DNA of 64,000 nucleotides from Amoebophrya sp. A120 (GCA_905178155.1 CAJINV010000010.1:3678587-3742586), one strand, 5' to 3'. Counted from the stretch's first letter, positions 10,631 through 52,747 are shown. Translations and numbers: made by a program. The notes: a model not told the origin generated them from the letters alone.

Positions 10631-10647
10631 AAAAGACCACACAACGA

Positions 10648-11718: not shown

Positions 11719-12852
11719 ATGCGCGTGCTCTTCCCCGGCGAGAGCGCCGGACAACAAGAACCCCAGCAAGGCTCAGCCCCTTTCACCTCCATACGACCAG
11801 CGACTACATCTTCCAGCTCTACTTCCTGCATTACCGCGATTATAGCAGAGAAAACGAAAAACGACCAGTCGAACCCCTGTTCCCCCTACCGACCCCGGCC
11901 GGGCGACGACTGCTTAGGAATTGTTCTGTCGAAACGCGGCGAGGTATTCAAACTCGACATTGGGTCGATTTCCCCAGCGGAGTTGTCCGAAACGGCGTTC
12001 AACGGGGCGACGAAGAGGAACAAACCGAGCCTGGAAATCGGGGACACGATTTTCTGCCATGTGGAAACCGTGCTGGACGGGGTTGCAAATGTATAGAGTT
12101 AGTTTTTTTTTGCTCTTCTCAGACAGGTTCAGATTCAGATTCATGGAGCGGCCCCGTGCTGGAACCCTTCAGGTTGTCATGCGTGGTCACTGGTATTGCA
12201 TAATGCATTCCGCCGTGATTTCATCCTCATCTGGTTTGCTTGTTCCTTCTTCCCGTGCAATTATACAAATCTTCGAATCGCAAATCGAATGGCAAATTTT
12301 GTGAAACAGGTCTCCTGCACCGACGACGGTGGGAAGTCTTTCGTGACAAAGGAAACCCTGTACGGGGCGTTGCAGCACGGCTACATAATCGACCACTTCC
12401 CGGTTGCGGAGTTTTCGGAAAGAACAGACAAAACAAAAACACACAAGGTGGATGCTCTGCTCGATTCATCCACGAGTAATAAGGCCATTGCGCAGCAGCA
12501 GCAGCAGCAGCGAAAAAACCTCTTCCCCCGGATTTTTCGGAAACTGGAGAAGTCGTTCGTGTTCGAAGTGGCCGTCGGAATGAACAATCGGGTGTACATT
12601 AGGTCCAACAGCTCGCTGCAAGACACGTTTTTCCTCGGAAAACTTCTGGAAAAAATCGGCTGCGAGGGGTTGACAGATGCGCAGGTGGAGGTGGTGTTGC
12701 GACGAGTCGCGACCGAGCACGGGGTGCTGGCTGGGAAGTTGACAGGAGCTGCACAGGTGCAAAATTCCGTGTTTGGAAAGAAGAAGAACAATGCGTCGAA
12801 TAACAATGCTGAGAACAACAACATTTCTCTCGTCGAAGTCGGCGGTGGCTGA
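11719..12852 (+). CDS. RRP40: Exosome complex component RRP40 (EXOSC3)
   Basis: S1 domain YRPRPGDDCLGIV...FKLDIG...AFNGATKRNKPSLEIGD and KH-like FEVAVGMNNRVYI. One GT-AG intron at 12091-12309. Confidence 0.9.
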
Positions 12853-13274
12853 GAATTACAAGCGATTCATTTTTCTTTTGAACGAACAGAATTGCGACCT
12901 GATTTGTAGTCCGAATCGATGAAGAACGGAAATAGGAGATGACAAAAATCTTATTCTTCCGAGCCGTGGGATATTTTTATTTGATCCTTTACACTTGTGG
13001 TAGGGGCAGTGCTTGTCACTCCTGCAGCCACATCAGCGTGTTCGAGGAAAAAATGCTTAAAGGAAAAATCTGTAGTACGAGGCTCGAGCTGGAGCTTCTT
13101 CAAAAATAATCCACCTGAGCGTCTGGTGGCTTTTAAGCTGGAGAATTCATGATTTTGAGAGGTAAGATAGAAGAAGATGCAGAATTGATAATATTCTGCT
13201 GAGGGCGAGGAGTAGTTTCTTGTTTTCTGTCGTCTTGTTTTTACAGCGCTTGTTACAGCCGCTGTCCGAACAAG

Positions 13275-16200
13275 ATGTTGCCCCCTCGTTCTGCTTGTTT
13301 CGTTTCTTCTTTTCTACTTTTGCTGGTGGTAACGCCCTCGTGGTTCCACCTGTGCCTCTATCAACTGTAAAAATGTCTGGGTCTGGAAGATTTTGAGATT
13401 TGTCATGCTTGTCTGACATGACTCAAGAATCTGTAATGCATGGGCACGGAGCGGTCCTCTTTTCTGTCATGCAAACACGCAGTTTGCCATGCGGAACACG
13501 CAACACATAGGAGCCCAAAAAATTTGTCATGCTTGGCTCCGTATTGCAGTGGAAATCTCGGGCACTTTTAGCATCACAAGTTTCCAGACCCAGACATTTT
13601 TACATTTGATAGCCTCGCTGTTGAACCATCAGGGGACGAAGCGTCTGTGGACTATAGCAAGGCTGCTTATCAAACGTAAAAATGTCTGGGTCTGGAAGAT
13701 TGCCCGGCTTGTCATGCACATTTTGCATGACTCCTGATGTCTGTGATGCATGCCCCAGCATCACAGATTTTGTGAGGGCTTCCTGATGCCTATACCGCAT
13801 GACAAATGCTCTTTCCGTGTAGCAAAACTTGGACTCTCTTTGCTGCTCATGCAATACAGATTTTTTTAGAATCCAAAATCAGCATGACAAGTTGGATTCT
13901 TCCAGACCCAGACATTTTTACAGTTGATACTGCTGCTGCTGCAAAAACTTCGTTGGAGAAGAAGGACCACGATACTGACAGTGCGACCAGTGCAACTTCT
14001 GTGGGTGAAACCAGCGGCAAGACAAGTTCCGCGAGCGCCAAAATCGTCGATGCAGAAGAGGCGAAAAACGCGATCTCAAAAATCGAAGAAGGGACCACGA
14101 AAAGTGTAGGAGTTGCCCCGAAGGCTACTTCTTCTACAGCAAGTTCAACACCTTCAAAAGCAGACACGACCGATGCGGGTGCTGCAGATGTGCTGGGGAA
14201 GAAACCTGAAACCTCAGATGGCGCCACCGTGGACATCAAAACTGCGGCACAAAAAGCGGATACTGGTGTGGCTGTGGACAGTTCCGCGGCAAAAACTTCT
14301 ACCGAGGCGGCGGGTCGTCCGGCTGCACCGGCGTCAGCTGCTCCTGTTGCAATAAAACCAGACCAGCAAGTGCTTGCAGCAGCAACGGAGGACCCCGCAG
14401 CTACAAAACCGGCACCGCTTGATCAAGCCGACACAACAACTGCTGCGCCAACGGCCAAGGTACTAGTCACGTCGCCAACAGCTGCACCAGATACAGTCAG
14501 TGCCACCGCGGATCCTGCTGTGGTCCCAACAGCGAAGCTCGAAAGCGTGGCTGGTGCTGTTGCAGTTACAACAAAGACGACCTCCGCTGCAGGTGAAACT
14601 ACAACAACCGATGGCACTTCTTCGGCGACACCTGCGCCGGCATCAACCGCCCCCCCTCCAGCCGAACAAACTACTGCGACCCCCGCTGGAGAGACTACAG
14701 CCGCGGGTGCAGCTGCTGCGTCTGCTGCACCAGCAGCACCTGCAGCAACATCGGCCGGAGCTGTTACAGGGCAAGAAACCGCGGCAACTTCTCCCGCTTC
14801 TGCACCAGTTGTGAGCAGCACGACGGCGCCGGCAGCCGCGGTGGGTGAGACGAAGCCAACGACTGTAACGGTTGCCCCTGAGGACGCAACCGGGGCTGCA
14901 TCTGGGACCGCCACTCCAGTTGCAGCAGGCACTCTACTTCCTGGTGTCACAGCTGCAACTGCCGCAGTTCCGACGGAGACAGCTGTTGCCAGTGCCGCAC
15001 CGGCAGCAGTAATTCCAGCTGCAGCCACGCAACCACCCGCCCCGCCCGTCGCGTCCGCAACGCAAACCCCGCCGACTGAAATCGCATTGGCGACCTCCAG
15101 AGACGAGGGGAAAAGCACAGCCGGCGGAACGGTGTTGAAGCAAGTTGCGCCCCGGGCTGGTGCAGCTCCGCCGGCACAAACGCCAATGCCTCCGGCGAAA
15201 ACAGTGTCGGAAGTAGTGCAAGAAACTCCTTCTATCCGCATCCCCTTAGAACACTCCGATATTTCCCCACACGGTGCGTGTAAGAAGCTGATCCAAGACC
15301 TGTCTTGCGGCGCGGAAACCGTGGACGCGGGGGGGGCAGCTTCTCCACCGAGCACGACGTTCCGCAGAAAGGCCATCTGCATTCGGGAAAAGATGATCGA
15401 GGTGTCGCTTCACAACAAGAACCCCGTGGAAGAGTTGGAAATCAGTAAGCAATGCTTAGCGGAGGTCGAGTCCTTTTTCCTCGAAGCGGGGGAGAAGCCG
15501 TTGCAAACCCTTCCCGAGATCTATCGTGAGGAAAAATTCCCCCTCTCCATACCAAAAAGGGATACTTCTGAAAATTTGCGATGCTGATTTGTGGCCACAA
15601 ATCGTCTCTGTATTGCAAGAAGGCGAATCCAGAGGCATCGCCGTGTTTTGCACGCAATTTGTAATGCTGCATGGCCTACAGAGTAGACATTTGCCATGCT
15701 ACGCGTCTACGTCAAAACCGTTCTGCTTAGGCTTGGCATGGGCCTGCAGTCCCCTACTGCAAGACAGACCTGCTTTGTGTACGCAGATCCAGCGTCAGAA
15801 ACTTCCTTGTGATATGGGGAGGGGGGATGTTTCCTTTTGATAAAATCGCCGCTGCCTGTTCCTCCGTTACGTGTGATTTGCAGGGCCAGGCGGCCAAGGG
15901 GGAGGAGCGGTTTTTCTGTCTGATGCAAAGCTACAAGCACCAAAAATCTTCGGCTGCTACCACGATCTCTGCGGGCCAAGTGGTATCCTCGCACTTGAGC
16001 AAGACCTGCCGCGACAAACTGTACGTATCAAGAAGAAAAATCCCCCCTCCCGACATCAAAAGGGTAAGCTGTGATGCAGATTTGTGCTCACAAATCAGCT
16101 TTGTCATGCTAGAAGGGAAAAGATGTAGACACTGTAGTGCTGGGTGGTGTGGGAAGGCCTTGCATCTTCAGCATGACAGGAGGCAGCTGGAAGTGGGAAA

Positions 16201-19200
16201 CAGCATGAGAAATTGCCTGCAAGCGAGGCCACAGCTGCGGCTCTTGGCCTTCTAGCAAAACAAGTCGACTTGTGTACTCAAATTTGCAGCATCACAAATT
16301 GCGTTTTCGATATTGGGATGGGGGATAATTCTTCATTTTGATAGTAAGCTTATCACGTTCTGTCGCACCGCAACAAAGAGATGTGTACGGAGGTGGTTTC
16401 GAAGTGCGACTCTGGCTTACAACAGCACTGCACGGCGCAGAAAATTTTGAACGGGAAAAAAGAAGTGACGGCGAATGGGATGAAGACAGTCAATTGGGTA
16501 TCCTAAATTGAAAAATGTCCCCAACCCGGAGTCAAGATGGAGAAATCCGCTAGACAAATCCGCCAGCTTTGGGTGTTGCGCATGACAAGTTTTGAAACTC
16601 GTAGCGTAAAAAGCCTGTTTAGCTCGCTCAGCAGCATCACAGATCTAGCCTGTCATGCTGATTGGAGTATTGCAAATTCCAAAACACGACGAGAAAGCGC
16701 TTGTTATGGGGCTCTGTGCATGAGAAACATTTTGATCATGCAGGTTTGCATGGCAACTATTGGGTGGGGACGCATTATTTACACAGCATATTGGGTCGCA
16801 TGGCCCTTGCAGAAGGAGTGTTTGCGCAACCAGGGCACCAATCTGGAAAGTAGCTGCCGGGCGGCTCTGTTTCGGGCGGAAATCGGGGTTGCCATCAGTC
16901 GATACAACAACGCGAAACTGGGGTCCTCTGGAGGTGGGGGTGGGCGGTTTTATAGCGCCGGGGAACTACGCCCAGAAGATGGTACTAGCACGAATGAAGG
17001 CGAGAGTGGCCGTGTCGGAGATGAAACAGGAACAACAGCATCGTCTGCAGCGAAGAGTAGTGCGGAGAGCGCAGCTGCTTCGCAGAAACGGCGGTATAAT
17101 GTCGATAAAAACGTATTTTGATGTACTCGTCCCGTGCCGTAATCGTAAGCTTATTTTTTCCGCCGGTACGCAGTCATGTTGGTGTTGTTCCATGCGCCTT
17201 CGGTCAAAAATACATACAAACTAGAAATAAACCAAACGTACAATTTTTATCACAGGCTGGATTCGTCCACCACCACCGCTCCTGGTATCTCCAACGCCAC
17301 ATCAAAAGCAACAACGGCTGCTTCCCCAACAACTTCTGCCTCCCCGGATTCGCTCGACTTTTACCCGCTGCTCAGAACCCGCTGCGAGCAGGATGTGCAG
17401 AAGCACTGCCTTTCGTGGGCGAACAAATTGAAGTGCTTGGAGGTTTTGGCCAATAACGACGAGCGGAAACTGATCCGACCGCAGATCGTCTACCCAGGAG
17501 GCGGGGGCGGCGGGGTGAATAAAGATGGAACGACGTCGAAAATAAACATGACCACTACGTCCAACGCGCTCGGGTGGCAGGGGTTTGGCACCGCGATGAA
17601 GCCGTCGACCTCGACGAAAACTACATCAAGTGGCAATAATTTGAGGAAAACAAAAACATCCGCATTTTCGACCACGGCAGATGTTGTTGAACACGACCAG
17701 AAAAGAACCACTTCTTCCTCGGGAAAGAACCATCGTGCGCTGGCTGTTGAACAAAATGATGAGAAACAAAAAGCAGAAAATCCTCTCCCAGAACAAAAGC
17801 AAAATAGTACAAAAAAATTCCTGAACCACACCGGCGCTATCTCGCCCTTCAAGTTTATGACGGATAGTATCAAAAACAGCACGAGCGCCGCTTTGGCCGC
17901 GCTGAGAAAGTCCGGGCTGCAGCAATCCAAAGCAGTCAGCGCTTTACCCTCTGCGGGGCTACGGCAGGATTTAGCGTTGACCACGGTTTGTCGTGCGCAG
18001 GTCAAGCAGACGATCAGGCAGAAGTACAGGGATATCCGCCTTAGTCCGGAACTAGCGAAGAACTGTGTCGGCGATATTGACCTTTTGTGCAAGACTGAGA
18101 AGCAGAAGATGTTGCAAACCGATTTACCCTCTGGGCAGGTGCTGCATTGCTTGCGAAGAAGGTACTACGAGATCCAACAACAGGACTGCGTGGATTCGTT
18201 TCGACTCTTTATGCAGACGTTTCAGCTGGACTGGGCGGCGGACAGCGTGACGAAGAAGGCCTGCAATGCGGACCGGCAATTGTTCTGCCAAAACGTGAAG
18301 ACGAGCTTGGTGCATGTGTGTTTACAGGAACACATCGACGAGTTGGATGTCGAATGTCAGAAGCAAGAGTTCATGGTTTCCAGCTTCGCGCAACTCGATG
18401 TGAACAGATTCAACCCGTATTTGAGCCGGATGTGCCTGCTAGATTTGGACAAACACTGCCCGCTGGACAGCTTGGGAGGTAGATACCTAGAATGGACCGA
18501 ATTTTGTAATGGCGTCCGTCCTCTCATATACTTGGAACTTGATTTTTCGCGGAACAGCACTAGTACAAAGAACAGAAAAATTGCGCTTCTGTTGCATCTA
18601 TCAGTATGACAAAGTTTTTAGAAAATAAAACTGCAGGCAGCGACATCCGTGCCATCACTTGTCTGCGGAAAGTCCCGAAGCACCAGCTGCACACTAGCTG
18701 CGAGATCGCGCTGAAGAACAACGCGCTTCGCACGAACCAGGATTTCCGGTTGAAATTTGGGGTAACCAATAACTGTATCCTGTGCAAAAGTATCGTACTC
18801 GTATTGCAATCATGCATCACAGATCTTTCTCTTAAGGTAAATCCGCATTACAAATTTTATTTCTTATGATCATGCTGAGGAAATTTGTAATGCATTTATT
18901 TATACGAGTACGATATTTTTGCAGTTCATAAACTGTGAGGAAGAAATCCAGAATAAGTGCCAAAAAGAAGCGTCTCTCGCCAAGCCGGAAGGGAAGGTCC
19001 TGCAGTGTTTAATCGAGAAGCTGGACAAGAACGAGCTGACCGTCGCTCATTCGATGGGCGAATTGGTGAACCCGAATTCCATCCAGCGCACCAAGCAGTT
19101 GTGTAAGCAAGAGGTGGAAGAGTTGGCGAAGCAGTTTGGGCAGAACATCCAGAGTGCGAAACAGATCAACCTGGCCTGCGCGGAGGACATTGAAAAGTTT

Positions 19201-22200
19201 TGTAAAAATGTCGAGCCCGGTATGGCAGTGCACAACTCCCCCTCCCCCTCATTTGTATAGCATGAACGGCAATACAAGCATCAGCAAGAGTGCCGGCGTT
19301 GCATGACAAATTCACACGACTGGAGTGTAGTGCTACTTGGGCTACCAGAACTTGTTACGCAAACAGTGCCATGAGGCAGCGACAGGATTCGGGGTTTTGC
19401 ATGACAAATGAGGGGCGGGAGTGGGAGTTGTGTACTTTCATACCCGGTTTCGGCCAAATCCATGACTGCTTGGTCGATAATCTGACCCGGGTCAGCAAGG
19501 AGTGTGCCGCGAAAGAGATGGCGCTGCAGAACGTTTTAGCTGGTGGGAAGGCGGGCGGGGCGGGAGGAGCAAATGCTGCTGCTGTCATTTTGCCGCCGAG
19601 TTTGGAGTATGCAATGCAAAAGCATCGTACTCGTATAAATGCATGACAAATTTCCTCAGCATGAGGAATAAAATTTGTCATGCGGATTTACCTTAAGAGA
19701 AAAATTTGTAATGCAGGACTGCGATTACTACGAGTACGATACTTTTGCACAGGATATGGAAAAGTGCTGTGAGAACGACATCGGCAGGCTATCAAAAGGA
19801 ACAATCCCCCCTCCCCATATCAAAACGTTGAAATTTCTGATGCTAGATTTGGATACACAAATCAAATTTGTGTTGCAGTAGAGGACCACTGCACGCAGAT
19901 CGCAAGTCTAAATCGCGAGCTTTTGGTGTAGGTGACTAGCATGGTAGTCGGCTGCCCTCTAGGCCTTACAGCATTACAAACCGCCTGGATAAAAACTTGG
20001 CGGGCAGCTGCCTGGACTTGCTTTCTTGCAAGACAGACACGACTTGTGGCCACAGATCTGCATCGCAAAGTTTCAGACGGGTGGGGAGGGGGCATTTTTC
20101 CTTGCAATACAGGCACTGCGGGAATTTCTCCAACCGGGTGAATAGCAACGTGGAAAACAAGGGAAAACTTTCCATCAACGCAGAGGAAAAGTTAACTTGT
20201 TTGATCAGTAAACAGCACGCCATGAACTTCAATTACAAGTGCCGGGAATGCGTGCAGAGGCACGTGAAAAGGCAAAACAAGGACTACAGGTTAAACCCAG
20301 GGCTGAAGAAGGAATGCGCGCCCATCATCGACGAACTGTGCAAAAAGGAAAAGGAAGAGCAGAAGAAGCACGCCGGCGGCGGGCTCGTGATCCAGTTATG
20401 CATTGCAAATATGTCCGGGTCTGGAAAGAATGGGATTTGTGATGCTAACTGTCGACGATAGAAAAACCTGTATTGCACGAGCAGCAAAAGCAGGTGCTTG
20501 AATTTTCGCCACCCGGAGAGGGCATTTCTCATGCAGAATAGGCATTAGCAATGCTTTGCGCGAACTGTGATGCCACAGCATGCATCACAGGCATCTTGGG
20601 TCATGTACAATTGTGCATGACAAACTCCACTTTATCATCTTCCAGACCCAGACACATTTGCAGTTGAGTCCAGTGTCTGATTGACAACCGCAACCGGCTC
20701 CAAGCCATATGACAAGGAAAAATCACCCCTTCCCATATTGAAAACGTGTCCTTCCGAAAATTTGTGATGCAGATTTGTGACCACAAATCCTGTCTGTCTT
20801 GCCAGCAGGCAAATCCAGAGAGTCCGCGGCGATATGCAGGCGGTTTGTAATGCTGCAAGGCCCACAGGGCAGACGTCTGCCATGCTAGGCCCCTACACCA
20901 AAAGGCCTCCCCCTATGCTTGCGATCTGCGTGCAGTGCTTTCCTGCAAGACAGATGTGATTTGTGTACACAAATCCCGCATCACAGATTTCCGTTTTGAT
21001 ATGGGGAGGGCGGATTTTTCATTTTGATAAGCCAATCCGGGCTGTTTGAAGGCGGTCCAGCTGAAAATCCGGCAGCGAGCGGACGACTACCGGGTGGCGC
21101 CGTTTTTCCACACGGTATCAAATGCAAAGATGTCTGGGTCTGGAAGATTGCCAAGCTTGTCATGCATATTTTGAATGACCCATGATGTCTGTGACGCATG
21201 CCCTAGTATCACAGATTTTTAGAGGACTTTCTGATGCCTGTACCGCATGAGAAATGCCCTCTCCGCGTAGCACAAACTGGAGTCCTCTTGCTGGTCATGC
21301 AATACAAATTTCTTTAGAATCCAGCGACAGCATTACAAGTTTAGAATCTTCCAGACCCAGACCACATTTTTGCATTTGATACACGGCGTGCGAGGACGAT
21401 CTAAACCGGTTTTGTTTCGACGTGAAGCCTATCAAATGTAAAAATGTCTGGGTCTGGAAGGGTTGGAACTTGTGATGCAAACTCTGGAACACACAAAAAT
21501 TTGTGTTGCATGCGCGCCAAAAGCTGTCCATTTCTTGGCACGCAAGTAGGAAGTTTCTCATGCGGGACAGGCATCATGAGGCGTGCTCAAAACCTGTGAT
21601 GCTTTTGCCTGCATCAGACGCCATTCGGGTGATCCGAAATATGCATGACAAATCTCGCAATCTTCCAGACCCAGACACTTTTACATTTGATAAAGCCCGG
21701 GGGCGGGAAGGTGCACAAGTGCTTGAATGCCCATTTATCGGAGCTGTCTCCCGCGTGCAAACACTTGGATATGCATTGCAAGAGCATCGTACTTCTAGTA
21801 TAAATTGCATGACAAATTGGCTTAGCACTACAAATGAAATTTGTAATGCGTATTGGCCTTAAGAAAAAGATTTGTAATGCATACGCGCATCAATTAGTAC
21901 GAGTGCGATGCTTTTGCGCTGCATACTGGAATTCCGCCAGCAAATGCAAACCGACCCGAGCAACGACCCGCAGATCAGACTCTACTGTTATCAAAAGGAG
22001 AAATCCCCCCTTTCCCATATCGAAGCCGAAACTTGTGATGCTGTATTTGAGTACACAAATCGACTTGTATTGCTAGAAGGCCGAGAGACGCCGTTGCGGC
22101 CTTAATTCCAGGCGATTTGTCATGCTGTTTTCCATTTCCAGTTGCCTCCTGTCATGCTGAAGATGCAAGGCTTATCTACGTTACCCAGCGCTATGGTCTG

Positions 22201-26663: not shown

Positions 26664-26669
26664 GATTGA

Positions 26670-26801
26670 GATTTGTGTTGCGAGATTGAGGAGTCGGTGG
26701 AACCACACCGGCAGATTTGTGTTGCGAGATTGAGGAGTCGGTGGAACCACACCGGCTGATTTGTGTTGCGAGATTGAGGAGTCGGTGGAACCACACCAGC
26801 A
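26670..26801. repeat. 44-bp tandem repeat, 3 copies, just after the GLG1-like stop codon
   Basis: GATTTGTGTTGCGAGATTGAGGAGTCGGTGGAACCACACCGGC(A/T) at 26670, 26714 and 26758. Confidence 0.93.
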
Positions 26802-29792: not shown

Positions 29793-30019
29793 TTAGTTTT
29801 GCCAAATTAAGTATTTTGTATTTTGTTGTTTTTTTTTAAGTACATTGTTTTTTCAAAAGGTATGCATGTAGGGATTGCATTAGTTTTGATTTTATCAAAT
29901 TGCCGTTCTTAGATAAAAATGCGACCTACTTGTATGATTTTGAGACCGGTACGTGCTGAGGCCCAGATTTTTAAACACGATGGCACGGTGAAGGTTAGAT
30001 TTTTAGCGTCGGGCATACC

Positions 30020-36900: not shown

Positions 36901-36987
36901 CAGCAGCCGGAAATCGAGTACGAAATGGAGGACGAGGAAAATGTGTCGCAAGTTGTCCGGCAAAAAGCGCTCGTCAGGAGGAGATGA
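33966..36987 (+). CDS. MAK16: MAK16 60S ribosome biogenesis protein
   Basis: Spliced protein FCSFKVK...[27 protein letters not shown]...[26 protein letters not shown]...CKQRLTKL...[18 protein letters not shown] with an acidic tail. Contains 5 introners and GT-AG introns 34118-34364 and 35227-35483. Confidence 0.93.
34143..34347. mobile_element. Truncated family B element inside a GT-AG intron of MAK16
   Basis: Left TIR (GGAAAATCTTCCCTCCCCATATCGAA) and B-type internal sequence are present; the right TIR is absent. Confidence 0.8.
34400..34549. mobile_element. Introner family C
   Basis: Family C TIRs; TSD TTGTT. Confidence 0.9.
34588..34839. mobile_element. Introner family A
   Basis: Family A TIRs; TSD ACACA. 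Confidence 0.9.
34875..35153. mobile_element. Introner family D
   Basis: Family D TIRs; TSD AGAGC. Confidence 0.9.
35777..36114. mobile_element. Introner family D (divergent interior)
   Basis: TIR TATCCTGCGTAAAAACGTC/GACGTTTTTACTCAGGATA; TSD AGCGA. Confidence 0.88.
36222..36528. mobile_element. Introner family E
   Basis: Family E TIRs; TSD GATTT; opposite orientation to 2751-3071. Confidence 0.9.
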
Positions 36988-38031
36988 TGAGAAGGATGCT
37001 CTTTACAAGAACTTTGTGATGAAATTACAACACAATAAATGTGACGAGCAGGACCACGTCGACACTGCGATTATGGTCGAGAGGACCTCCACGCTATCAC
37101 GAGGAACATCAGGAAACGATACCCTTAAGCTGCACTTCCTAGCGCAAGAATTGATGTCGCAAACAACGCATATTGCAAAACGAAAGCATAGGACTTACCG
37201 CTGCTTATCCTTGTTCCTGAGGAACGCGGCACAGCAGATTCATTGTGTTGATCAGTAAATATCGTGAATTTTGTTCAGCCACTGTTTCATGGACGGAAAG
37301 GGAAGCGTTCCTGTCTTCGTGTTGTGTACGAATCTATCATTACGCGAGTGCGCGAGGACGCTCTGAGCGATGTGAGTAAGTAGATGTGTCGTGAACAAAC
37401 AAGGAGAGAGAAATGGACGTCGAGACAGGACGGAGCGGCGTACAAAATTCAACGCCCCTTGTCCCGTCAACGTCCGAAGATCAACAGGACACATGATTGG
37501 AAAATGTGTCATGTTGTCCCGCTATGTACTATTAGATGGCAGGCTGCACGCGGCCGTCAGCGGCGATCGCAGGCGCCGAAAAAAAGACAAACAAGCTGCG
37601 CTGCCTAGCCCAGCGGTGAGAGGAAAAATCGTTTCCGCATCATGTATTGTTGACCTTGCTCGTCCAGCAGCCCGCCGCGCCGCCCATGATGACGAGTGTG
37701 AGGGACGATTCAGCTGCCGTGTCTGTAAGTTTCGGCTCAGAGATGAGACGGCTATACTTAATGTGTCGAGGTGGAACAAGGAGAGAAACAACTATGGTAA
37801 TGGTTTCTGTTGAGAGCAGTAGGTTTCGTCTCGGACTTGATAGTGCTAAGATAGAAGTCATCAACATCTGGGTGGGAAGGAGAACTACATCACGGGCCGC
37901 ATTTTTGTGTGTGTGCGCACTATAATTTTTAAGCCTTTTCAGCAGGAGCAGGAACCCAAAATAAACAAGAAGCTATCGCTTCGGTGACACTTGGCTGCGC
38001 CCTCCGACAGCACCTCGATCCCCTCGCCGCC

Positions 38032-41000: not shown

Positions 41001-44000
41001 AGTACACGGGCTGTCGAGGACATTCGACTATATGCATTTTGCAAATACAACGTTTGTCTGGATGTCGAGGTTTGGGGTGCAGCTTTCGCGTGACCCAGAA
41101 GGTCTGGCATGCACGCCCTAGCATGATCTTCACAGGCTTTCTTGAGAAGAAGGCCTCTTAATGCGCGATCCGCATGGCAAAGCCCTTCTTTCGGTGGCCA
41201 GAATTGCGCAAGTTTTGGCTACTTCTTCCACGCATGACAGATTTTTGTGTGATGTGAAATGCGCGTCACAACTTGTTCCAGTCATCCAGGGGTACTTATT
41301 TGCAGTGGATAGACTACACAGACGAGCAACTCGCGTTTCTCGGCTACTGGCTCTTCGGGATTTTCTGGATCACCGAACTGTTCTATGGGCGTGGACAATT
41401 CCCCCTCCCCCTCGTTTGTATAGCATGAGCGGCAACATAAGCAGTGGCAGCTATGTGGCTTCCGCATGACAAACCTCCTGCGCCACATGGATTGTAGTAC
41501 TGCTTGAGGTCGTTTCAAAATTTCTCATGCAGACACTGCCTAGAGGCAAGAGGTAGACTCGTCGTTTTTTTGCATTACAAATGAGGGGGAAGGGGAGTTG
41601 TGCACTCTGATATGTTCACAGCGCTGGGGCAGTTCGTGGTCAGCTACTGCGTGGTGCTGTGGTACAAACATTTTCTGTTTTTGCTTTGCATAAAGCGCAT
41701 GACAGAATTGCTTTTTTTTATGCGGCAGCAACAGCAGCAGTCGTTGTGCATGACAAGAAAAACACCGCACTCATTGAAATCTATCTTCTCCACCCAGGTA
41801 TTTCTCGGACAAGGACTCGAACGGGAGAAAACGCGGCCCCCCGTTCCCACTCTTCAAGGGCGTGTTTGTCGGTATTTTTTTCCACCTCGGCACACTGGCG
41901 ATGGGGGCGTTCTGCATAGCAATGCTGCGGGTAGTCAGAATAGTGCTACAGTACGTCGCAAAACAGGCGAAGCAAGGTACAGTCTTTTTTTTGAAATGGG
42001 TTGAACATGAAGTAGTTTGATGTTGGTATGCCAGTACTTTATTTCCAGTAGATGAAATATGATAAGATGGTCCCCTAGATGTACATGTAGATGTAGATGA
42101 AAGCGACTTTATTGTGCACCGAGTGGACGTGAAAAAGCGCACGTAAAAGAACGAAAAAGCAAGAGCAGCGCACACGTACATGCACATCTGAAATCAGCCG
42201 ACAATGCCGTTCTGGAGATAATCGCAAAGCTGCTTTTGTGCTGCGTGATGTGCTTCGAGCGGTTTGGTTTACCAAATGTAAAAATGTCTGGTTCTGGAAG
42301 ATTGCCAGGTTTGTCATGCACATTTTGCATGACTCCTGATCTCTGTGATGCATGCCCTAGCATCACAGGTTTTGTGAGGGCTTTCTGATGCCTCTACCGC
42401 ATGACAAATGCTCTTTCCGTGTAGCAAAACTTGGACTCTCTTTGCTGCTCATGCAATACAGATTTTTTTAGAATCCAAAATCAGCATGACAAATTGGATT
42501 CTTCCAGACCCAGACATTTTTACAGTTGATATGTTTCCTTCCTGAACAATACCGCCTACATGGACGTGGCATTGAGAAGTAGCAACTTTTGTGCCGCTGC
42601 GAAGTATCCTGTGCAAAAGTATCGCACTCGTATTGCAATCACGCATGACAAATCTTTTTCTTAAGGTAAATCCGCATTTACAAATTTTATTTCTCATGCT
42701 GAGGAAATTTGTCATGCATTTATGCGAGTGCGATACTTTTGCAGTGCATACGAAGAACGCCTTCACGATGATCACCAGCGAAATCGCAACGATTGCGCTC
42801 CTGAACGGGGCGTGTGCGGTGTTTCAGGTGCCATAGACTACTTTGACTACTTTGTCATGCGGCTTTCCCAATATTAAGCAGAGACGTCGCGTGTAGCTCC
42901 CTTGAAGATCCTGCGCTAGGTAGTACTTACTTCAACGACGGAACAAAGACTGAAACAGAAATTAATACCACCCCCGCCCCGCAGGTCGTCGGCGCGGCTC
43001 TGATATCCGGCTTCGGTGGGTTCCTCACCTTCCTCATGGTTACCGAGCTGGACACGTTCACGTACAACGAGTCGGCGTACTACATTGCCTATGGATTGCA
43101 AAAATGTCTGGGTCTGGAAGAATGCAGGAGTTTGTCATGCAGATTTTGCATGACCCATGAGGTCTGTGATGCATGCCCTAGCATCAGAGATTTTGCGAGG
43201 GCTCTCTGATGCTCATACCGCATGAGAAATGCCCTCTCCGCGTAGCACAAAATACACCTCTTTCGCTGTTCATGCAATACAGATTTTATGTAGAGTCCAG
43301 TGGTAGCATCACAAGTACTAGCATCCTTCCAGACCCAGACATTTTTGCAGTTGATATTGCCGACCCGGTGTTCATCTCCATCGCCGCGGGTGTGATTTGC
43401 TTGGTAATCTATCAAAGTGAAAAATCCCCCCACCCCATACTCAAACTAGAAATTTGTGATGCAGATTTGTGGTCAGAAATCAAATTTGTCATGCTAGAAG
43501 AGAAAAGATGCGGACTGTAGTGCTGGCTGGCGTGGGAAAGCCTTGCATCTTCAGCATGACAGGGGGCAGCTGGAAGTGGGAAACAGCATGACAAATTGCC
43601 TGCAACCGAGGCCACAGGTGCGTCTCCTGGCCTTCTAGCATTAAATACACCATCACAAATTTCGTTTTCGATATGGGGAGGGCAGATTTTCCCTTTTGAT
43701 ATAATCGCGATGGCGTTTATGGTGATATTCGACCAAATATCCTGAGGAAAAACGGCCCTTCACCAGAGTTGTCATGCAAATGCGCAATGACAGGAATCGA
43801 TTTGTAATGCGCAGCTCCATGAGAGGAATTTCCAATCGTGTTTTGAAGTTTGTAATGCTGAAAACAGGATTAGCATGTGAAAATGGCTTTCTCATGCGCC
43901 TTCTCTTGCCAATCAGCACTACGCGGTAGGGGAAAACTTGTGACGCACAGCTCCCAAAACCTGGAGACTTGTTTTGCTAGATTCCCAACTTGACTATGGG

Positions 44001-44127
44001 GTGGCGACGTTTTTGCTTAGGATACCAAACCGCGGACACCATGCTGTACTGCTTCGTTTACGAAAAAAAGAGCGGCTCCTCCAGGTACGCACCCGAATCT
44101 CTCGCCACGCTGATTTCCAGCAGCTGA
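38032..44127 (+). CDS. Choline transporter-like protein (CTL/SLC44 family)
   Basis: RRCTDILCLLVF, GDVRRLSHGFNFKGKLCG, FHLGTLAMGAFCIA, CFERF..FLNNTAY...NFCAAAKNAF and DTMLYCFVYE. Contains 13 introners and GT-AG introns 38526-38679, 40490-40600, 41662-41797, 41977-42197 and 42828-42984. Confidence 0.9.
38191..38463. mobile_element. Introner family A
   Basis: Family A TIRs; TSD TTGCG. Confidence 0.88.
38966..39124. mobile_element. Introner with degenerate TIRs (family J)
   Basis: TSD CATCC; weak TIR (AAACTTATTC/GAATAAATTT); removal restores RYCIPK. Confidence 0.8.
39163..39372. mobile_element. Introner family H
   Basis: TIR TATCGCAAGAAAAAAGTGTTACAGTT/AACTGTAATACTTTTTTCGTGTGATA; TSD GATGA. Confidence 0.9.
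39398..39706. mobile_element. Introner family A, decayed
   Basis: A-like TIRs with mutated ends (TAAG.../...GACA); TSD eroded (GCGTG/CTCTG); frame restored on removal. Confidence 0.78.
39862..40203. mobile_element. Introner family G
   Basis: Long TIR ...GAAATCGTCAAAGTTGAAATAATTTG; TSD TCGTC. Confidence 0.9.
40659..40981. mobile_element. Introner family E
   Basis: Family E TIRs; TSD CGACA. Confidence 0.9.
41031..41311. mobile_element. Introner, A-like and diverged
   Basis: TIR TATGCATTTTGCAAATA/TATTTGCAGTGGATA; TSD GACTA. Confidence 0.85.
41384..41612. mobile_element. Introner family F
   Basis: Family F TIRs; TSD TGTTC. Confidence 0.9.
42270..42531. mobile_element. Introner family A
   Basis: Family A TIRs; TSD TGGTT/TGTTT. 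Confidence 0.9.
42605..42750. mobile_element. Introner family C
   Basis: Family C TIRs; TSD CGAAG. Confidence 0.9.
43090..43356. mobile_element. Introner family A
   Basis: Family A TIRs; TSD TTGCC. Confidence 0.9.
43410..43701. mobile_element. Introner family B
   Basis: Family B TIRs; TSD TAATC. Confidence 0.9.
43738..44024. mobile_element. Introner family D
   Basis: Family D TIRs; TSD CCAAA. Confidence 0.88.
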
Positions 44128-47100
44128 CGGGCAGGTCGGAGTGATCATTTGATGGTGACTGTACACGACTTGACGCTAAAGGGCTCGCGCGTGCGAGTTG
44201 TGCGATGTTGAAAGAGGATCAAAACAGAGATTAAGAAAGATCATTCTGCGCAGTCTGATTCTCTGAAAACAAAAAAATGAACTAAAGCAAATTTCGGGCG
44301 CGAAGCTTTAAAAAATGCCGCGGACCAACAGTTCGAAAGATTCTAGGGCGCGTCGCAGCTGCTAGCGCTACGACCCCCAAGACGGTGGCCTGTCAGTGTT
44401 CCCCTCTCCGGAGGCTACTTTTTGTTTTTCCTCCCCACAGAACAGCCCGCTGCGCTCATGTTGTTGAGCTCCGCGCGTGATAGTGGCAGCCACAGATGAC
44501 ATATGCGGCGCCATTTCTAAACAGCAAGGAGAAAAGGCGAAGCGGGCGCGCGGGCGGCCAGGAGCGTGGTGCGGTGCAATTCGGAGCCAAAGCGCAAGAG
44601 CCACGCCGGCGCGCCTCTTGTAGCTTGTCGCCCGCGTCTGCACCCCGGCAAGCAGGGCGCACGCTCTGGGGCTGCCGGAAAGGGGCGCGCCCCCCCTGCA
44701 GTGTTTCGGCCCACTTTTGCCGAGGGCGGGCCCGTCTGGTTTGTGGGTCAGCGCCCTTGGGCCCGCCCCGTGTTGCCCATTGAAAGGGCGGCGAGGAGAT
44801 TTGTTGCGACCCATTTTCGCCGGGTCGCCTGGTCCGCCCGGCGCCGCGGGGGCCCCGCTCCTAGAGTTCCAGGCCTGTGCCCGGCCGCACCGTGGAACTG
44901 CTTGGGCCCGCGCCCGAGGGCCTTCATAGCGTGCCAGGAACAGCGCCCGGGGTTCCACATGCGGCGGCCTTTGGGGCTGCCGTGGTGCGGCTGGGCCTTT
45001 GGGCCGTTCGCCGGGTGTCTAGGCGGAATGAAGCGCCGCAGGCCACTAGCCCTTCCCGAAGAAAGCTCGCCCAAAAAGAGGCGGGCGCGGGCACGGGCCA
45101 AGGGGGTGCCGGGAGAGGTTGCGAGGGAGGATGGCCGGCGGCACGCCAGCAGGCAGCAAGGCGGGCGAGGGGGCCCCGCGCCTTTTTTCGACCGCCCCCC
45201 CGCCCCGGCTGCACGCAAGCGCGCCCGCCCCCGGCCTCCGCGGCCGTGTTCCTTCCTTGGGCCTTCGGCCGAAGGCCCGCACTGAGTGACTTCTGGCGCA
45301 ATGCCTCGTCCTCCCGCAGTGGCGGCTGGCCGGGTGGTTGCCAGGACGTGAAGGCGCGTGGCCTTTTCAACGGCAGAGGCCGCTGCGTGAGTTCCCGCAC
45401 AGATTGAACGGGCTCACTCGCGCGGGCGAGGTACGGGAGACCGCAAGGCTAATGCTGCAGAAGGGGGGGGCAAAAAATTTGGACCGCGTAAGCATGGACT
45501 TCTACCAGGATTTTTTTCGAGGGAGAGCTGGCGCGGTTGTCCAATATCCCGGACGAATGTCCTCGGCCGGGCAGGATCAGCCAAACGAAAACAATCCCGC
45601 ACGGGCCGCAAGCTTGCCGGGCCCATACAAAGGACGGAAAGCGCGGGCGCTGATTGAAGGCGGTGCAAATGCGACGGAGCGCAGGGCCATCGGCCGCCCG
45701 CGCGCCCGGCGCCCCGGGGCCTTCGGCAATTCCCACCCACCGCCGCCAGGCTTTGCCCCGTTTCAATTCCGCAATTAACGCCGACGCGCCCGCAGCGCCT
45801 TGCCCGTGTTCCCAATACGGGAAGACGGAAGGCCCTCAGCCTCGACAAGGTGAGGGCGCGGTCGCGGCGGCGCTTTGAAGCGCCGCGGCAGAGAGGAAGC
45901 AAAGGCAAACCAAATGCCCGGCCATCGTCGTCGACGCCACCGACGACATTGGCAGAGACAACTGGGGCTACGCGGCCGCTTCGACCGGCCGGGCGGGCGG
46001 GGCAAAGCACGAGACAGAGAGACGCGCGAGTCCCGGCCGGGTCAGGTGGGAGGCGGGCCACTGCGCGGGCATGATAGATTGCGCTTGTGGGATAAAGTTG
46101 GCGCCTGGCCGGCGCACTCACAGCGCCTTGGTGGCGTTGTGAGTGCGCCCCCGCACCAAAGACATCGCCGCCGCCCGTCGCGCGTGAGAGGGTGTGGCGC
46201 TGGGGTGGCTACCGCCTGCCGCCGCTTGCATGCTTGCCATTTTTATCTTCGGCGCGGGCCCGCCCCATTTTACCGGTGCGCCTTAAGCGGCGCCCGTCTG
46301 ATGCCGCCGTTCGTGGGGCGCGGCGCGCGCGTGCTTGGCGCTTGGGGCCGGGCCCGGCGCCTGCTCCTGCCGCCGCGCGCTGGCTAGTCTTTTTGCCTGC
46401 TCAAAGCGCTCCCCTGTAGTCGTGTGATATAGAGCAGCGCGGCTCTAGTAGGTACAGTTGCTCTTGCTCAACAAGGTTGCCCATGTTCTCTGATGAACAG
46501 GCACAGTTTGGGTCTTGTTCGTTTCAAGAGGAAGTTGTCAGAAGCAATGCCGAGTACAAACTGGAAGTATGTACTGAGAGAGCCCTTTGTTATATCAATC
46601 AAGTTCTTTCAGCACATACGATGTGGAACCCAAATTCAGCATAAGAAATAGTGGTGTAGCTAATATTCAGCGAGAGATGTTGAGAGCTTCGGGCGTCTGT
46701 CCTGAGTGTCAAGAACTGCAACCCGGGAAAGCAAGTAAGATCGAGCGTGACACTGAGAGCGAAGTGGTCGATTGGCCATTGCGCGTTTGTCGATATTGCT
46801 TCTTCATCTCCTCTTCTGATTGGCGGCACCGTCTTCATAAACAAACATCGAACAGCCTCCATAGTCCAAAGAAAGATTCTTATATTGCCCCACAGTAGAT
46901 GTAGAAGTTATTACCCATACCCATACCATAGAGATAGACACAGCGACAGTTACCCACCGTGTTGATTTGATGTAAGAAAGTATGATTCGATTGAAGTTGC
47001 CAGAGGACCCAGACTGGTGAATGACTCGGAAATGATATTGAGCATTTCCGGTCGCACACTTTTTTAGAGAGCCGCGAGAGCACACCTAACAAGCTTACCT

Positions 47101-47379
47101 GTCCTTTCGTCGCTACGCATCACTCTGTAACTTTCAAGAAGTTTTATTTCTGTTTGTAATTATATGGTCGACGATGTGAGGCCGACTTCGGATGTTGGTC
47201 GGAAATCCGAAGATGCGACCGTCTCGGTGTTTTCATTTTTCGCACTCGCTCACCTCGCCTCGTTTCGTTCTCTTCTGACGTAAAAATTATGTCATACTTT
47301 TTGGTCGACGTGCTTCTGTTCAAATTCACGTCCACGTGCTCTACTTGAGTATCAACCGCATTACATATCCTTTTCCACA

Positions 47380-50300
47380 ATGACAAACAACAAAGCGATA
47401 GACTTGGACGTTGTCCTAACCGCTCCAAGTCGTAGTCGTGACACTGTAGAAATAAAAGACAAAACTGCTAGTACGCCAGGAGAGGAGCAACTACATAGTT
47501 GTGGCCAACAAGAACTTCTATGTGGAGATGATGATCTTGTCGAAAAGGAGGATCTGACAAAGCAAAAAAATGAAGCCAGTAAGAAACCTTCTTGCGGAAT
47601 AGAACAAGCGAGACGGTCCTCCAGTTCAAAATCGGCGGCACAGCACCAACAGCCACTCGCCAGTGGGCCGCTGAATGTCTTGCAGAGGGAGCTGATCTTC
47701 ACGACCAGCAAAGGCGCCACCTTGTCGGAAGACGAGTCGGACGCGGGAGAAGCGATCGTAGGGAACGAATTTTTCACTTCCGACCCGCATATACAGTTCC
47801 AGTCCGACAAGACGAGAAAGAAAGAGCTACTTGTTTATCCAAGTAAAAAAAGTGGTGAAACGACAAGTAGTGCAGCTCTTCCTCTTTCAAGAACACCAGA
47901 TTCTGTTGCAAGGCAGCAACATCGCACGACTTCTACCCCGTCCTCCTCCGTATCGTCCCGCCTTGGTCCGCGTTTACCGCACCACCAGTTTTCCTCCGTC
48001 TTCTCTGCCGCGCACGGAGGGAGCGTCTTTCCAACGGAGGACGAGAGTGTAGTTTTCAGCGACGATCAACAGAGAAGAGGGCGAGGAGCAGAAGTAGATC
48101 ATACAGCGGCCGATCTCTTGTTCTCTCCCGACACCACCTCCCCGTCAGGTGGTGCATCCTCCAATTGGGTCGACCTTTCTCGAGATGTGAGCAGCAACTA
48201 CACAGCGCAAGGATTGGACGAGCAGGACGAGGTCTCGACTTGCACCAGTACCCAGATCGGACTCGGCCGCACTCGAGAACATCCTGAACGGACAAGAATA
48301 AATCCTGAAGAACTAGATTTATTGCATCAGCGGAACGATTCCCAACGACCTGCTAGCACCACCGGCGCGTCTTCAAGAAAGAATAGAAATTCATCATTCG
48401 TCTCTACTAGTACTTCCAAACCATCTACAAGTAGTGGTCCTCGGAGGACTGCTTCGCCTACCCAACCCGTCCACCCACAACTACCCACCACCTCGCCCCT
48501 ACCACCCAACCCGTTTGATAATAGGAGCAGTGGCGTGGTGTTTGACGCGAATTTTTCTTATACCGACACCAACAACACCTCCACCCCTCCCCGTCCGCCA
48601 GAACAGGAGCATAATTCTAGTAGTGGCTCAGCCTCGACTAGTCTCTACGCCAAGCTCGAGCAACTGGAGCAGTACTGCCGCGACCTGCTCGCCATATCAA
48701 ATGCAAATATGTCTCGGCCTGGAAGGTTGGAGCTTGTGATGCTAACCCTGGACTCTAAAAGAATCTGTATTGCATGACCAGCAAGACGAGTCTACTTTGT
48801 GCTACGCGGGGAGGGCATTCGTCATGCGGCTTAGGCATCAGGAAGCCCTCTTCTAAAAATCTGTGATGCTAGGTCGTGCATTACAGACATCCTGGGTCAT
48901 GCAAAATATGCATAACAAACCCGGCAACATTCCAGACCGCGACACTTTTGCAATTCATACGCCAGCATGACGAACCCTACCGACATGATGAACAACCCTG
49001 CGGCGCAAATATGCTGAGTAAAAACGTCCCCGCGCCATAGTTGTCATGCACTTCTGCATGCCAAAAACGTTTCTCATGCGGACCCCTCAGAGAAGCATTC
49101 TCTGTTCGTGTTTTGGAATCTGTGATGCTAGAATCACGATGCTATGCTAGATCTGTGATGCTTCTGAACTAGTCAAACAGGATGACACTACGAGGACAAA
49201 CTTGTCATGCCAAACAACCAAAGCTGGTTGATTTGTCTAGCAGATTTCCCCTCTTGTTGACTCTGGTGTGGGGACGTTTTTAATCAGGATAGCAAAACAG
49301 TACTTCCGCGCTCGCGCAACCGACGCAGCAGGAGCAGGCGCAGTTTCTCGCGTTAACCGCGAACCACTCTGTGGACTTGATCGTCACGAAAATTCGCTCG
49401 ATCTTGCAGAACTCCGCCACAATACGACAGGCGCTGTACTACCGGTTGTTGCGGATAACGCAGTACCTGGCGTGGAAGTTATGCATTGCAAAAGTATAAT
49501 CGCGCTAGTAGTAATTGCATTACAAATTACCTCAGCATGACAAATGGAATTCGTCATGCTGTTTTACATTGGGATGGAGATCTGTAATGCATAAATGCAA
49601 TCACTACGAGTACGATATTTTTGCACAGGATAGAAGTTCCCGACCTACAACGCGCTCCAGAACCTCCTCCACGAAGTCCTTCAGTCCAAATCCATCATCG
49701 TATGGGAGTGCACAACTCCCCCTTCCCCTCGTTTGTATGGCATGAACAGCAATACAAACACAAACACAGGTGGAGCCAATGCGTGAGAAATTTGTGTGCC
49801 TAATGTAGTACTGTTTGGGCAGTTTCCGGAATTTGCCATGCATAATAGTGACGCAAGGAAGCAACTGGATTTGGGATTTTGCATGAGAAATGAGAACGAG
49901 GGGGAGTTGTGCACTGTCATACATCGGCAAGCAAACCACGACGGTGTACATGCTCGGGAAGAAGTTCCCGTCAACCGATGACAAAACTTTCCGCGCGGAG
50001 TGGTGCCGGAAATTTCTGTTCACTTACAGGAAGAACTTCCGGCCTTTACTGCAGATGCCGAACGACAGCTCCACCGCGAACATCACGTCCGACCAGGGCT
50101 GGGGCTGCTACATCCGCACGTTCCAGATGATGCTGGCACAGTGCTACTCCCAGCTGTTTTTCCCCTCCGCGAGTGATCTGGCCCTGCAGGAGCAGATGGC
50201 GAGCGTGGATCAACATGGCAGCCGGCAGAAACAGAACACGGACCCGGAGGAGAGGGAGTTCGTGAAAGAGCTGTTCGTGGACAACGAAAAAGCGCTGTTT

Positions 50301-52747
50301 TCGGTGCACAACTTCTGTCGGGTGGGGTTGCAGAAATTCAACCGAAAACCCGGAACCTGGTTCGGGCCCTTTTCCGCGGCAAAAACCATCGAAGTGATCT
50401 ACGACGAGATACATTATCAAATGCAAAAATCCCTGGATGTCTGGAACAAAGCAACTTCTCATGCTAAATCTGGATCATGTAAAAATCTGTGTTGCGTGAT
50501 CACCAAAAGCTGTCCACTTTTGACCTAATAGAGAGGCAGTTTCTCATGCAGGATAGGCATGGTAGAACTCTCACAGAATCTGTCATGCTGTGTCCTACGT
50601 ACCAGACCTCACGGGCCATGGAAAACCTGCGTGACAGGTCTGGCATTCTTCGAGACCCAGACACTTTTGCATTTGATATACATCACGGCAGTACTAAGGG
50701 AGGTGCGTCCGGTTCCACGGCGTCGACGGCGTCAAGTATCCTGAGTAAGAATGTCCCCACACCAGAGTTGTCATGCAAATCTGCATGCCAAAAAAGTTTC
50801 TCATGCGGAGCCCCATGGGAACAATTCTCTATTCCTGTTTTGGAATTTGTAATGCTAGAATCAGCATGATATGTTAGATCTGTGATGCTTCGGAACTAGC
50901 CAAACAGGACTACACTACGAGGATAAACTTGCCATGCGAAACAACCAGAGGTGGCTGATTTGTCTAGCGGGTTTCCCATCTTGACTCTGGGGTGGGGACG
51001 TTTTTGCTCAGGATATCAAGTTCCACTTCTTCGAAAGGCTCGAGCTCATCTTCAAGTAGAAACACGACGTTCGCACATCACTGCCGAGGTATAGTGCTTT
51101 TTTTATAAGAATCTGGTACGTTGTTCTTGAGAGGTTATGAGCATTTTCTATGTATGCTTGATGCCCTCGAAGTCGAATCTGAGGAAGGACAAACAAGTGT
51201 TTGTCATGCAAAAAACGAGTGACAGCTGTCTTTTGTGATGCAAAAAGAACTAAAATAAAAAAACAGTATGCGTCTTCGACGAATTGTTCGATCCTGACGA
51301 GGTGAAAGGAAAACTCAGTGACAACAAAGCCGTCATCTGCCTTCTCTGCAAAAAACTGGGGCCGAATGCGAACATAGCCCCGGAGTATACGGAGGCCGTG
51401 AAGCAAGTCTTCAAACTCGCCACGTTTCAGGGGCTAGCATGTATATGTGATTTGATTTGTTGTCATCATAATTTCTTCGAAAGAAAAGCGAAGCTTGTCA
51501 TGCACATGACAAAGCATTCTGATGCTCGTGACGTGCCCACAATTGATGGTACGAATCCCGCATGACTACAATCAACCTGAACCTTAACAGGCGGCGACAC
51601 AGCTACGTCAGCGCACTATTTCCTGGCCGCAAGCGACACTTACGCTCTCTACCTCGACCCGCATGTGGAAACAAGGGCCGCATTGTATCGTAAGAAAAAA
51701 CGTCTCCACGACCCCGGAGTCAAGATAGATGGGGATTTCGCTACACAGACCAGCATCTTTTGGCTGTCGCGCATTTGACAAGTTTGGAGGCATCGCAGTG
51801 TAATAAATCGCGTTTAGATGATCATACTGTAGCTGCATCAGAAATCGATCTACTCTTCCTGATTCTACTAGCACGACAAACTGGCAGACACCATGAGATA
51901 GAAAATGCTCCTCATGGGGCGATGCATGAGAAACGTCCCAGGCTTGGTGCAGATTGGCATGACAAAAGTTGGGTGGGGACGCTTCTTCTCAGGATAGATT
52001 GGACGGAGCAGAAATGGACACGAGCAGCTGGCACGCGCTGAAAAGTATAAATATATACTTTTGATGCTATAATTAAGTGTTTTGTTGTAGAAAGTCGCAA
52101 TAGAAACCAGTAATCTCTTGCGTATCCAAGCATGGCAAATTGAATCAAAAATAGTAATGAAAACCGAGTGTACCAGCACATATGAAACCATCTTCATCTT
52201 CAGGTAAAGACGGCACGCCCTGTCTCTTTCGCCTGCCTTTCGAGTCTTTGAACTCTAGCAGTTGCTTCTGCTTCCTCATCCGCGATACCGAAGACCTCGC
52301 GCAGCTCTGCTTGGAATTGGAAATGTACGACTCACTCTCCGAAGCCTTTGAGGTGAAGCGCGGCGGGGTGTTCATGGAAAAACTCACGGGGTCGCTGTAT
52401 CCTCAGGAAATAAAACGTCCCCAGAGTCCAGATGGGGATTTTGCAACACAAGCCTAGAAGTTTTGTTGAGAGTGACGCATGACAAGTTGCAGTGTGTAGT
52501 GTGGTGCGGGGTAGCACGGACAGCCGCACTATAAACCCAGCTGCTCATCCTGTTCAATTATACAGCATTGCAAAATTTTCCAAATGACGACTGGAAATGC
52601 CTATCATGGGCGACATGCGGCGCATCACAAAGTTTCTTGTCATTGCAAATCCGCACGACAGGTGGGGACGTTTTTACACAGGATACGCTGGACATCAATC
52701 AAAAATGGAACTGCGACGACGAAGACGAGGAGATGGTTTTGCTGTGA
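47380..52747 (+). CDS. ATG4: Autophagy cysteine protease ATG4 (peptidase C54) with a long low-complexity N-terminus
   Basis: FTYRKNF, SDQGWGCYIRTFQMMLAQ (catalytic Cys), FSVHNF...KPGTWFGP, YLDPH (Asp/His) and acidic C-terminus DDEDEEMVLL*. Contains 8 introners. The junction near 51089-51266 is unresolved. Confidence 0.88.
48695..48959. mobile_element. Introner family A
   Basis: Family A TIRs; TSD CGCCA. Confidence 0.88.
49010..49291. mobile_element. Introner family D
   Basis: Family D TIRs; TSD GCAAA. Confidence 0.9.
49480..49632. mobile_element. Introner family C
   Basis: Family C TIRs; TSD GAAGT. Confidence 0.88.
49701..49921. mobile_element. Introner family F
   Basis: Family F TIRs; TSD CATCG. 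Confidence 0.9.
50415..50678. mobile_element. Introner family A
   Basis: Family A TIRs; TSD TACAT. Confidence 0.88.
50737..51015. mobile_element. Introner family D
   Basis: Family D TIRs; TSD TCAAG. Confidence 0.9.
51686..51996. mobile_element. Introner family D
   Basis: Family D TIRs; TSD CATTG/GATTG. Confidence 0.87.
52398..52685. mobile_element. Introner family D
   Basis: Family D TIRs; TSD CGCTG. Confidence 0.88.

Follow-up and report, generated by a model that had tools for sequence, protein, structure and literature searches.

Why does one short word recur in intron-like inserts that otherwise have no alignable interior in common, and again in canonical GT-AG introns? The question is raised by a 64,000-bp stretch of the Amoebophrya sp. 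A120 genome (GCA_905178155.1 CAJINV010000010.1:3678587-3742586; hereafter the window), whose + strand harbours ten genes interrupted by many inserts of 130-340 bp that start with TAT, end with ATA and are flanked by 5-bp duplications. They resemble the introners described in the text of Farhat et al. (2021, PMC7789003), i.e. 29,850 copies making up 17% of the A120 assembly, with a TAT start, a later A-run, removal as non-canonical introns of about 240 nt from coding exons, and direct repeats at the exon boundary (5 bp; criterion 3-5 bp). An earlier, sequence-only reading of the window noted the word YTGTVATGC and proposed either that a factor marks introns through it, with introners exploiting the mark to get spliced, or that it is a transposase subterminal site and many canonical introns are eroded introners. 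Our analysis favours the latter and weakens the former as a general intron mark. On balance, we lean towards the motif being the subterminal sites of a mobilising complex common to all families, its copies in GT-AG introns being mostly relics, because the sites are phased to the element ends, are independent of strand and decay like the flanking duplications, and because eroded introner pieces are found in GT-AG introns.

The motif in introners of all types

The window was annotated with 67 introners and 16 GT-AG introns, and its genes include, by Pfam name, RRP40, ATG4 (peptidase C54), a choline transporter (CTL), MAK16, a kinesin and a Cys-rich repeat protein, plus a PPR gene. The introners are multi-copy, with a DNA depth that reaches about 50,000 compared with 42, and their removal is seen as joints in contigs of sequencing runs presumed to be RNA, which are the source of RNA support throughout. 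In all types the ends are terminal inverted repeats (TIRs) beginning with TAT and carrying an A-run at positions 11-15, and the target-site duplication (TSD), 5 bp in most and possibly 6 bp at some joints, is perfect in 113 of 136 elements.

DNA from outside the window was obtained by a metagenome scan with a three-site pattern, with 118 loci analysed among the matches listed. At least 31 of these (160 kb), all with the assembly prefix JACKZZ01, carry the window's families without overlapping it. No second species with the motif system was found among the listed metagenome matches, 18 other motif-rich loci being tandem repeats or unrelated, and scans of viral contigs returned 120 pair matches at background-level motif counts and one irrelevant triple match. 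The outside loci added 135 candidates; 197 elements formed 36 clusters, which were grouped by hand into 15 TIR types. The family analysis leaves out L207, which duplicates L165, as well as two false calls and any element at least 400 bp long. Outside elements matching the search pattern were excluded from the conservation and TSD-clock analyses and included in those of pair spacing and end phasing. Window examples, with site positions counted within the element, are:

13668..13929, type A introner (23 in the window; TIR core AAAAATGTCTGGGTCTGG), sites 41> 73> 90< 129< 183< 214<
4081..4392, type B introner (9 in the window), three 32-bp pairs, 43 bp from each end to the first site
19608..19756, type C introner (9 in the window, about 150 bp), first sites pointing outward, one 31-bp pair
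43738..44024, type D introner (12 in the window), strong sites on one strand only, junction shown by contigs
35777..36114, type D introner in reverse orientation, sites on the other strand only, absent from the MAK16 contig judged by size
41384..41612, type E introner (3 in the window), alternating sites at intervals of about 47-52 bp, few 32-bp pairs
58216..58523, type F introner (3 in the window), about 41 bp from each end to the first site
36222..36528, type G introner (3 in the window)
4459..4673, type H introner (2 in the window), array 31> 47< 62>
10648..10901, type I introner, directly 3' of the kinesin stop
38966..39124, type J introner
61722..61892, type L introner
39396..39706, eroded type A introner whose ends and TSD have decayed; contig size indicates that about 314 nt are nevertheless removed
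41..63688, both strands, strict YTGTVATGC sites (n=210)

These 210 strict sites (115 on the + and 95 on the - strand) compare with a mean of 3.97 and a maximum of 11 in 100 dinucleotide shuffles, and the motif class supplies the top 8-10-mers of the window. Strict density is 10.8 per kb in introners (193 in 17,907 bp), 2.4 per kb in the 15 unique GT-AG introns (8 in 3,319 bp; shuffles 0.2, maximum 2), and 0.31, 0.22 and 0.09 per kb in AT-rich non-coding DNA, GC-rich non-coding DNA and exons, respectively. The rarity previously judged by eye in GC-rich intergenic DNA and in long exons is borne out, with one match (8248) at 7373-9545 and none at 13935-15521. A strict site is present in 65 of the 67 window introners. 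The interiors of the introners also served to train a wider matrix, (A)A(T/C)(T/C)T(G/C)TV(A/T)TGC with T, T, T, G and C near-fixed, which finds a site in 196 of the 197 elements, and in 155 of them the motif lies within 20-62 bp of both ends. All 15 types carry the same motif, so that it is not specific to a family; once it is masked, interiors of different types cannot be aligned (only B-B and H-H matches fall below E=0.2), in agreement with the sequence-only reading.

To assess conservation, each family was split, one half serving to define the sites and the other to count mismatches. The held-out mismatch was 0.112 for the motif, 0.113 for the TIR and 0.256 for the spacers, and each of the 10 families with five or more members differs in this sense; motif bases change 2.3-fold less than their neighbours. 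CpG decay as the cause of this gap was rejected, since the gap persists at A/T and at non-CpG G/C bases. The sequence-only reading had staked itself on motif positions mutating more slowly than their neighbours and on GT-AG introns exceeding the non-coding background, and both expectations held. A short motif that is repeated near both ends and conserved within families is characteristic of subterminal repeats.

When the 5-bp TSD was used as a clock for time since insertion, TSD mismatch was 3.7% per site (136 elements) vs 3.2-5.8% in the motif core, and 23 copies with a damaged TSD had a similar small added change in motif, spacer and TIR. Within wide intervals, this TSD-like decay is compatible with selection on the sites at transposition and neutral change from then on. 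In old eroded elements, 74% of the motif bases and 66% of the spacer bases are retained.

A few elements deserve separate mention. At introner positions 4-10 the two ends of one element are often non-complementary, drawn from a small common variant set, and positions of about 11-30 pair well. A type D introner at 24533-25302 contains an insert of short tandem repeats that brings it to 770 bp, the frame being open once all is removed, and in L193 (631-1465) about 580 bp of unrelated DNA split a type A introner.

Spacing, phasing and strand of the sites

The sites follow a spacing grammar that the sequence-only reading missed. Same-strand copies 31-33 bp apart form 34 pairs in the window. Direct pairs at 30-33 bp occur in 13 of the 15 types (family-weighted 13.9 vs 2.4 under the null, with outside loci chosen by a pair-containing pattern), same-strand spacings of 12-29 bp are depleted (family-weighted 2.3 vs 10.6), and the spacers of 22 consensus pairs are unrelated outside type B. 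In types E and K, orientation alternates every 46-52 bp.

Measured from the element end, the distances to the first inward-pointing site fall into three groups, 31-33, 39-44 and 51-55 bp, and none is 36-38 or 49-50 bp. For 19 collapsed units, this corresponds to a phasing of R=0.63 at a period of 10.5 bp (p=0.001, or 0.003 when the scan over periods is allowed for), with 48 of 65 ends in the window and 107 of 124 outside in phase, vs 17 of 41 positions. In type A, elements with one and the same TIR shift in end distance from 32 to 39-42 bp. There is no sense bias among motif copies (170 sense vs 152 antisense); type D copies in genes comprise 6 with sense-only and 4 with antisense-only sites, and both orientations are removed, as indicated by the junction in contigs one way and by the MAK16 contig size the other way.

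End phasing, pairing and strand independence together suggest that a protein recognises the sites on duplex DNA, from one side of the helix and in register with the end of the element. It would bind one B-DNA face as a dimer or multimer, at sites 3, 4 or 5 helical turns from the TAT terminus, and might be the DNA-binding domain of a transposase or a cofactor from the host. One such protein could suffice for all families even as their specific TIRs drift in matched pairs; selection would act at the birth of copies, and the sites would decay afterwards.

The same data bear on an action at the RNA level, as a branch point-like signal, an RNA-binding-protein site or internal hairpin stems. The branch-point consensus is yUnAy, with which GCAUBAC agrees, predicted folds pair motif bases more than spacers (0.74 vs 0.59), 105 of 313 copies pair with another copy, and convergent sites 15-17 and 46-50 bp apart are recurrent. 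However, 208 of the 313 copies pair with no other, sites in GT-AG introns lie anywhere from 24 to 200 nt from the 3' splice site, and neither the lack of sense bias nor the removal of type D with sites on either strand alone is expected of an RNA signal, which we regard as improbable. No small nuclear RNA (snRNA) was matched by Rfam in the window.

Since TAT termini, the A-run and 5-bp TSDs are shared by all types, common descent is plausible, and some pairs resemble part of a 16-bp alternating array. The word might thus be the historical leftover of a single ancestor with internal tandem duplications, with no protein to read it. Yet it is kept across types in which masked spacers and interiors are unalignable, and the end distance jumps in discrete single turns; the 2.3-fold lower change within families strongly disfavours this explanation, to which we give very little credit. 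Even less is given to a chromatin or DNA-modification site that would keep elements in open linker DNA. The centre of the word, V-AT-G, agrees with the VATB context of symmetric adenine methylation, V preceding AT (T only 2%) and G following it; a VATB/SATS preference is described in PMC12695648, the consulted text of which has nothing on this lineage. Against it, T occupies the A position in 15% of matrix sites, and the long fixed flanks and the spacing exceed what a methylase context needs.

Canonical introns with and without the motif

Contigs from the presumed RNA runs span the GT-AG introns at 997-1927, 3110-3244, 3827-4017 and 12091-12309 and five CTL introns. The MAK16 introns agree with contig sizes and open frames, the ATG4 introns with an open 924-aa frame and a contig size within 8 nt, and two GLG introns with the reading frame. 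Those discussed here are, all on the + strand where a single intron is given:

12091..12309, RRP40 intron, strict site 12174, single-copy DNA depth
3110..3244, variant sites 3160 and 3192 (32 bp apart) with a weak inverted site between
38526..38679, CTL intron, site 38555
41662..41797, CTL intron, sites 41697 and 41748 (51 bp apart)
42828..42984, CTL intron, site 42852
41977..42197, CTL intron without a site (counter-example)
997-1927, 3827-4017, 17094-17255 and 35227-35483, further introns without a site (counter-examples)
51089..51266, ATG4 intron, pair 51201/51233 (32 bp)
51441..51590, ATG4 intron, site 51495
52045..52203, ATG4 intron, variant pair 52097/52130 (33 bp)
34118..34364, MAK16 intron containing the left two-thirds of a type B introner (196 bp, 83%)

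The eight intron sites originally cited all carry the strict word, with 38554, 42851, 51200 and 51232 having been listed one base early. Among the near-matches, 3160 and 52130 are common matrix variants, whereas 1087, 3965 and 18605 are weak. As a side observation, the donors of window GT-AG introns are often GTAT (7 of 16), resembling the introner TAT start, and A-rich rather than pyrimidine-rich tracts often precede the acceptors.

For an independent set, a gene predictor that recovered 15 of 16 training introns was applied outside the window, and 22 of 59 predictions passed a filter blind to the motif (first bases GTA, length of 80-350 nt, no nesting, no match to an introner). L193 was badly modelled, and its 106-nt GT-AG intron with a 32-bp pair, spotted by eye, is excluded from all counts. 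Over their 4,637 bp, the 22 predicted introns contain 3 strict sites, many fewer than the window introns do; shuffles give 0.38 (p=0.007), and the comparison with non-coding DNA gives p=0.10. In the pooled set, 9 of 37 introns have a strict site and 12 of 37 a matrix score of at least 12; the unique introns contain 11 strict sites in 7,956 bp vs 10 in 45,264 bp of non-coding DNA (p=7e-5).

This enrichment speaks for a sequence-specific host DNA-binding protein that would label some of the introns at the level of duplex DNA and aid co-transcriptional splice-site choice, introners carrying the site to get spliced. The 32-bp grammar is retained in GT-AG introns, strand independence is compatible with DNA binding, and the text of PMC7789003 reports that U1 snRNA was not detected in these genomes. 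However, 25 of the 37 introns lack a strong site, contig-confirmed ones included, and the independent set replicates the enrichment weakly; therefore, the motif is not a required intron mark, and the general-mark reading is weakened. Nor is the motif decay of introners below that of the TSD, and the base retention of eroded elements likewise speaks against the mark. A core splicing signal would be present in most introns, on the sense strand and at a fixed 3' distance; here sites are found in a minority and on both strands, with no fixed distance to the 3' splice site. Seven of 22 sites lie 22-35 nt from the 5' splice site, a cluster noted post hoc and not used as evidence. Taken together, we consider such a host mark unlikely, though worth keeping in view.

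The preferred reading, subterminal sites with GT-AG relics, predicts that unique GT-AG intron sites are mostly remnants of old or truncated introners. Besides the case in MAK16, four elements from outside the window, of types C, D and E, are eroded and coincide with introns whose GT-AG ends are predicted, although these elements keep terminal remnants; judging from such sequences, a continuum from introner to GT-AG intron exists. Motif-bearing GT-AG introns have surroundings richer in introners (p=0.05) and a weak collective likeness to the families (combined p=0.015, under a null that may flatter). Position-conserved introns, almost all canonical, make up 19.4% of A120 introns and canonical introns 35% in total according to the text of PMC7789003, which would leave a large strain-specific canonical share available to be introner-born.

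Mobilisation, known systems and neighbouring features

Several observations weigh against the subterminal-site reading. No transposase was found in the 38 long ORFs scanned of the 97 listed, and the text of Farhat et al. (PMC7789003) likewise reports none for A120. Subterminal motifs of hAT elements differ between transposases (PMC3143072), whereas here the TIRs differ and the motif is common. The pair statistic is inflated for types A, B, D and G because outside loci were chosen by a pattern with the pair, which is missing in types K and O and rare in E, and spacer length is not better kept per base within pairs than between sites. The best period of 11-11.25 is also compatible with A-form RNA, outward-pointing first sites show no phasing (p=0.48), and the TSD-clock intervals exclude nothing. 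Finally, motif-only GT-AG introns have no terminal repeats and mostly no significant family likeness beyond the motif, which favours a host mark, while their words are near-perfect and 3 of 6 same-strand pairs are 30-33 bp apart (expected 0.3, p=0.002); neutral decay explains such consensus-grade words and spacing poorly. It is tempting to speculate that one host DNA-binding protein reads phased TTGTCATGC pairs, both mobilising every introner family and defining introns on DNA without detectable U1, with introner-derived GT-AG introns keeping the pairs under host selection. We consider this doubtful, more so than the host mark taken by itself; if true, a transposon signal would have turned into a splicing code.

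The closest known counterparts are the subterminal repeats of hAT elements (Herves CG/AATTCAT, Ac, Tol2, Tag1; PMC3143072, PMC8151067), which are likewise short motifs with variants just inside the TIRs. As far as the text of these sources goes, however, each motif belongs to one transposase rather than to 15 TIR types, and Tol2 has a TSD of 8 bp, unlike the 5 bp found here; helical spacing is a feature of the present sites, binding to which is predicted only. Emigrant/Lemi1 (PMC1636448) and mPing (PMC9921582) are also described as non-autonomous TIR elements with interior repeats that are bound cooperatively or tune mobility, but with one family per transposase, no splicing and no cross-family word. 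IS3EU/GingerRoot elements share TA..TA termini and differ in a TSD of usually 6 bp (PMC10045372). Subterminal transposase-bound repeats are thus known but family-specific, and what differs here is a phased word that crosses families. A Myb-like protein of Harbinger elements may be a further analogue, for which our literature search gave no match. An apicomplexan TGCATGCA link appeared as a lead in a literature listing and was not used as support.

The main text of PMC7789003, figures and parts of its supplement aside, mentions no GCATG, TGTCATG, subterminal or conserved motif; it treats 1,954 introner families as separate and rules out general mobilisation by transposase. Nor did we find a report of the word or its phasing in Amoebophrya in the literature, including the text, figures and some supplements aside, of PMC12130899, PMC9860276 and PMC11282704. 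A candidate enzyme source in this genome is introner family 38, described in the text of PMC12130899 as having LTR-integrase-like ORFs; no autonomous introner copy was seen in the DNA examined here.

The motif bears on two questions about introners, namely what mobilises them when no transposase is known for them, and what allows their splicing in the absence of GT-AG ends and of a detected U1. If the subterminal-site reading is true, all families would form one system with one trans factor, for the pull-down of which the motif is a ready bait. Two jobs would be separated, with interior sites serving mobility and terminal repeats possibly splicing, and the motif would be a marker to trace canonical introns born from introners.

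Raw RNA reads of run X9 match the window at 34595-34670 and 50459-50499 at 90-95%, only over a type A introner end and with foreign flanks, and cover no exon of the window; the transcript comes from a related element in another organism that bears the same species label. Among the introner-dense genes, the PPR gene (28420-29792) has neither introns nor introners. Directly after the GLG stop (26660-26800), 44-bp tandem copies occur three times with a motif variant in each, and between ATG4 and the next gene (53800-56170) lies a mixed tandem-repeat block of a GC-rich 15-19-mer and AAAATATTT units. At the right end of the window, a segment of about 45 bp (CACCTGCACCAACCCTACC...) is repeated at 59150-59210, 60160-60210, 61505-61555 and 62585-62635, in coding as well as non-coding DNA.

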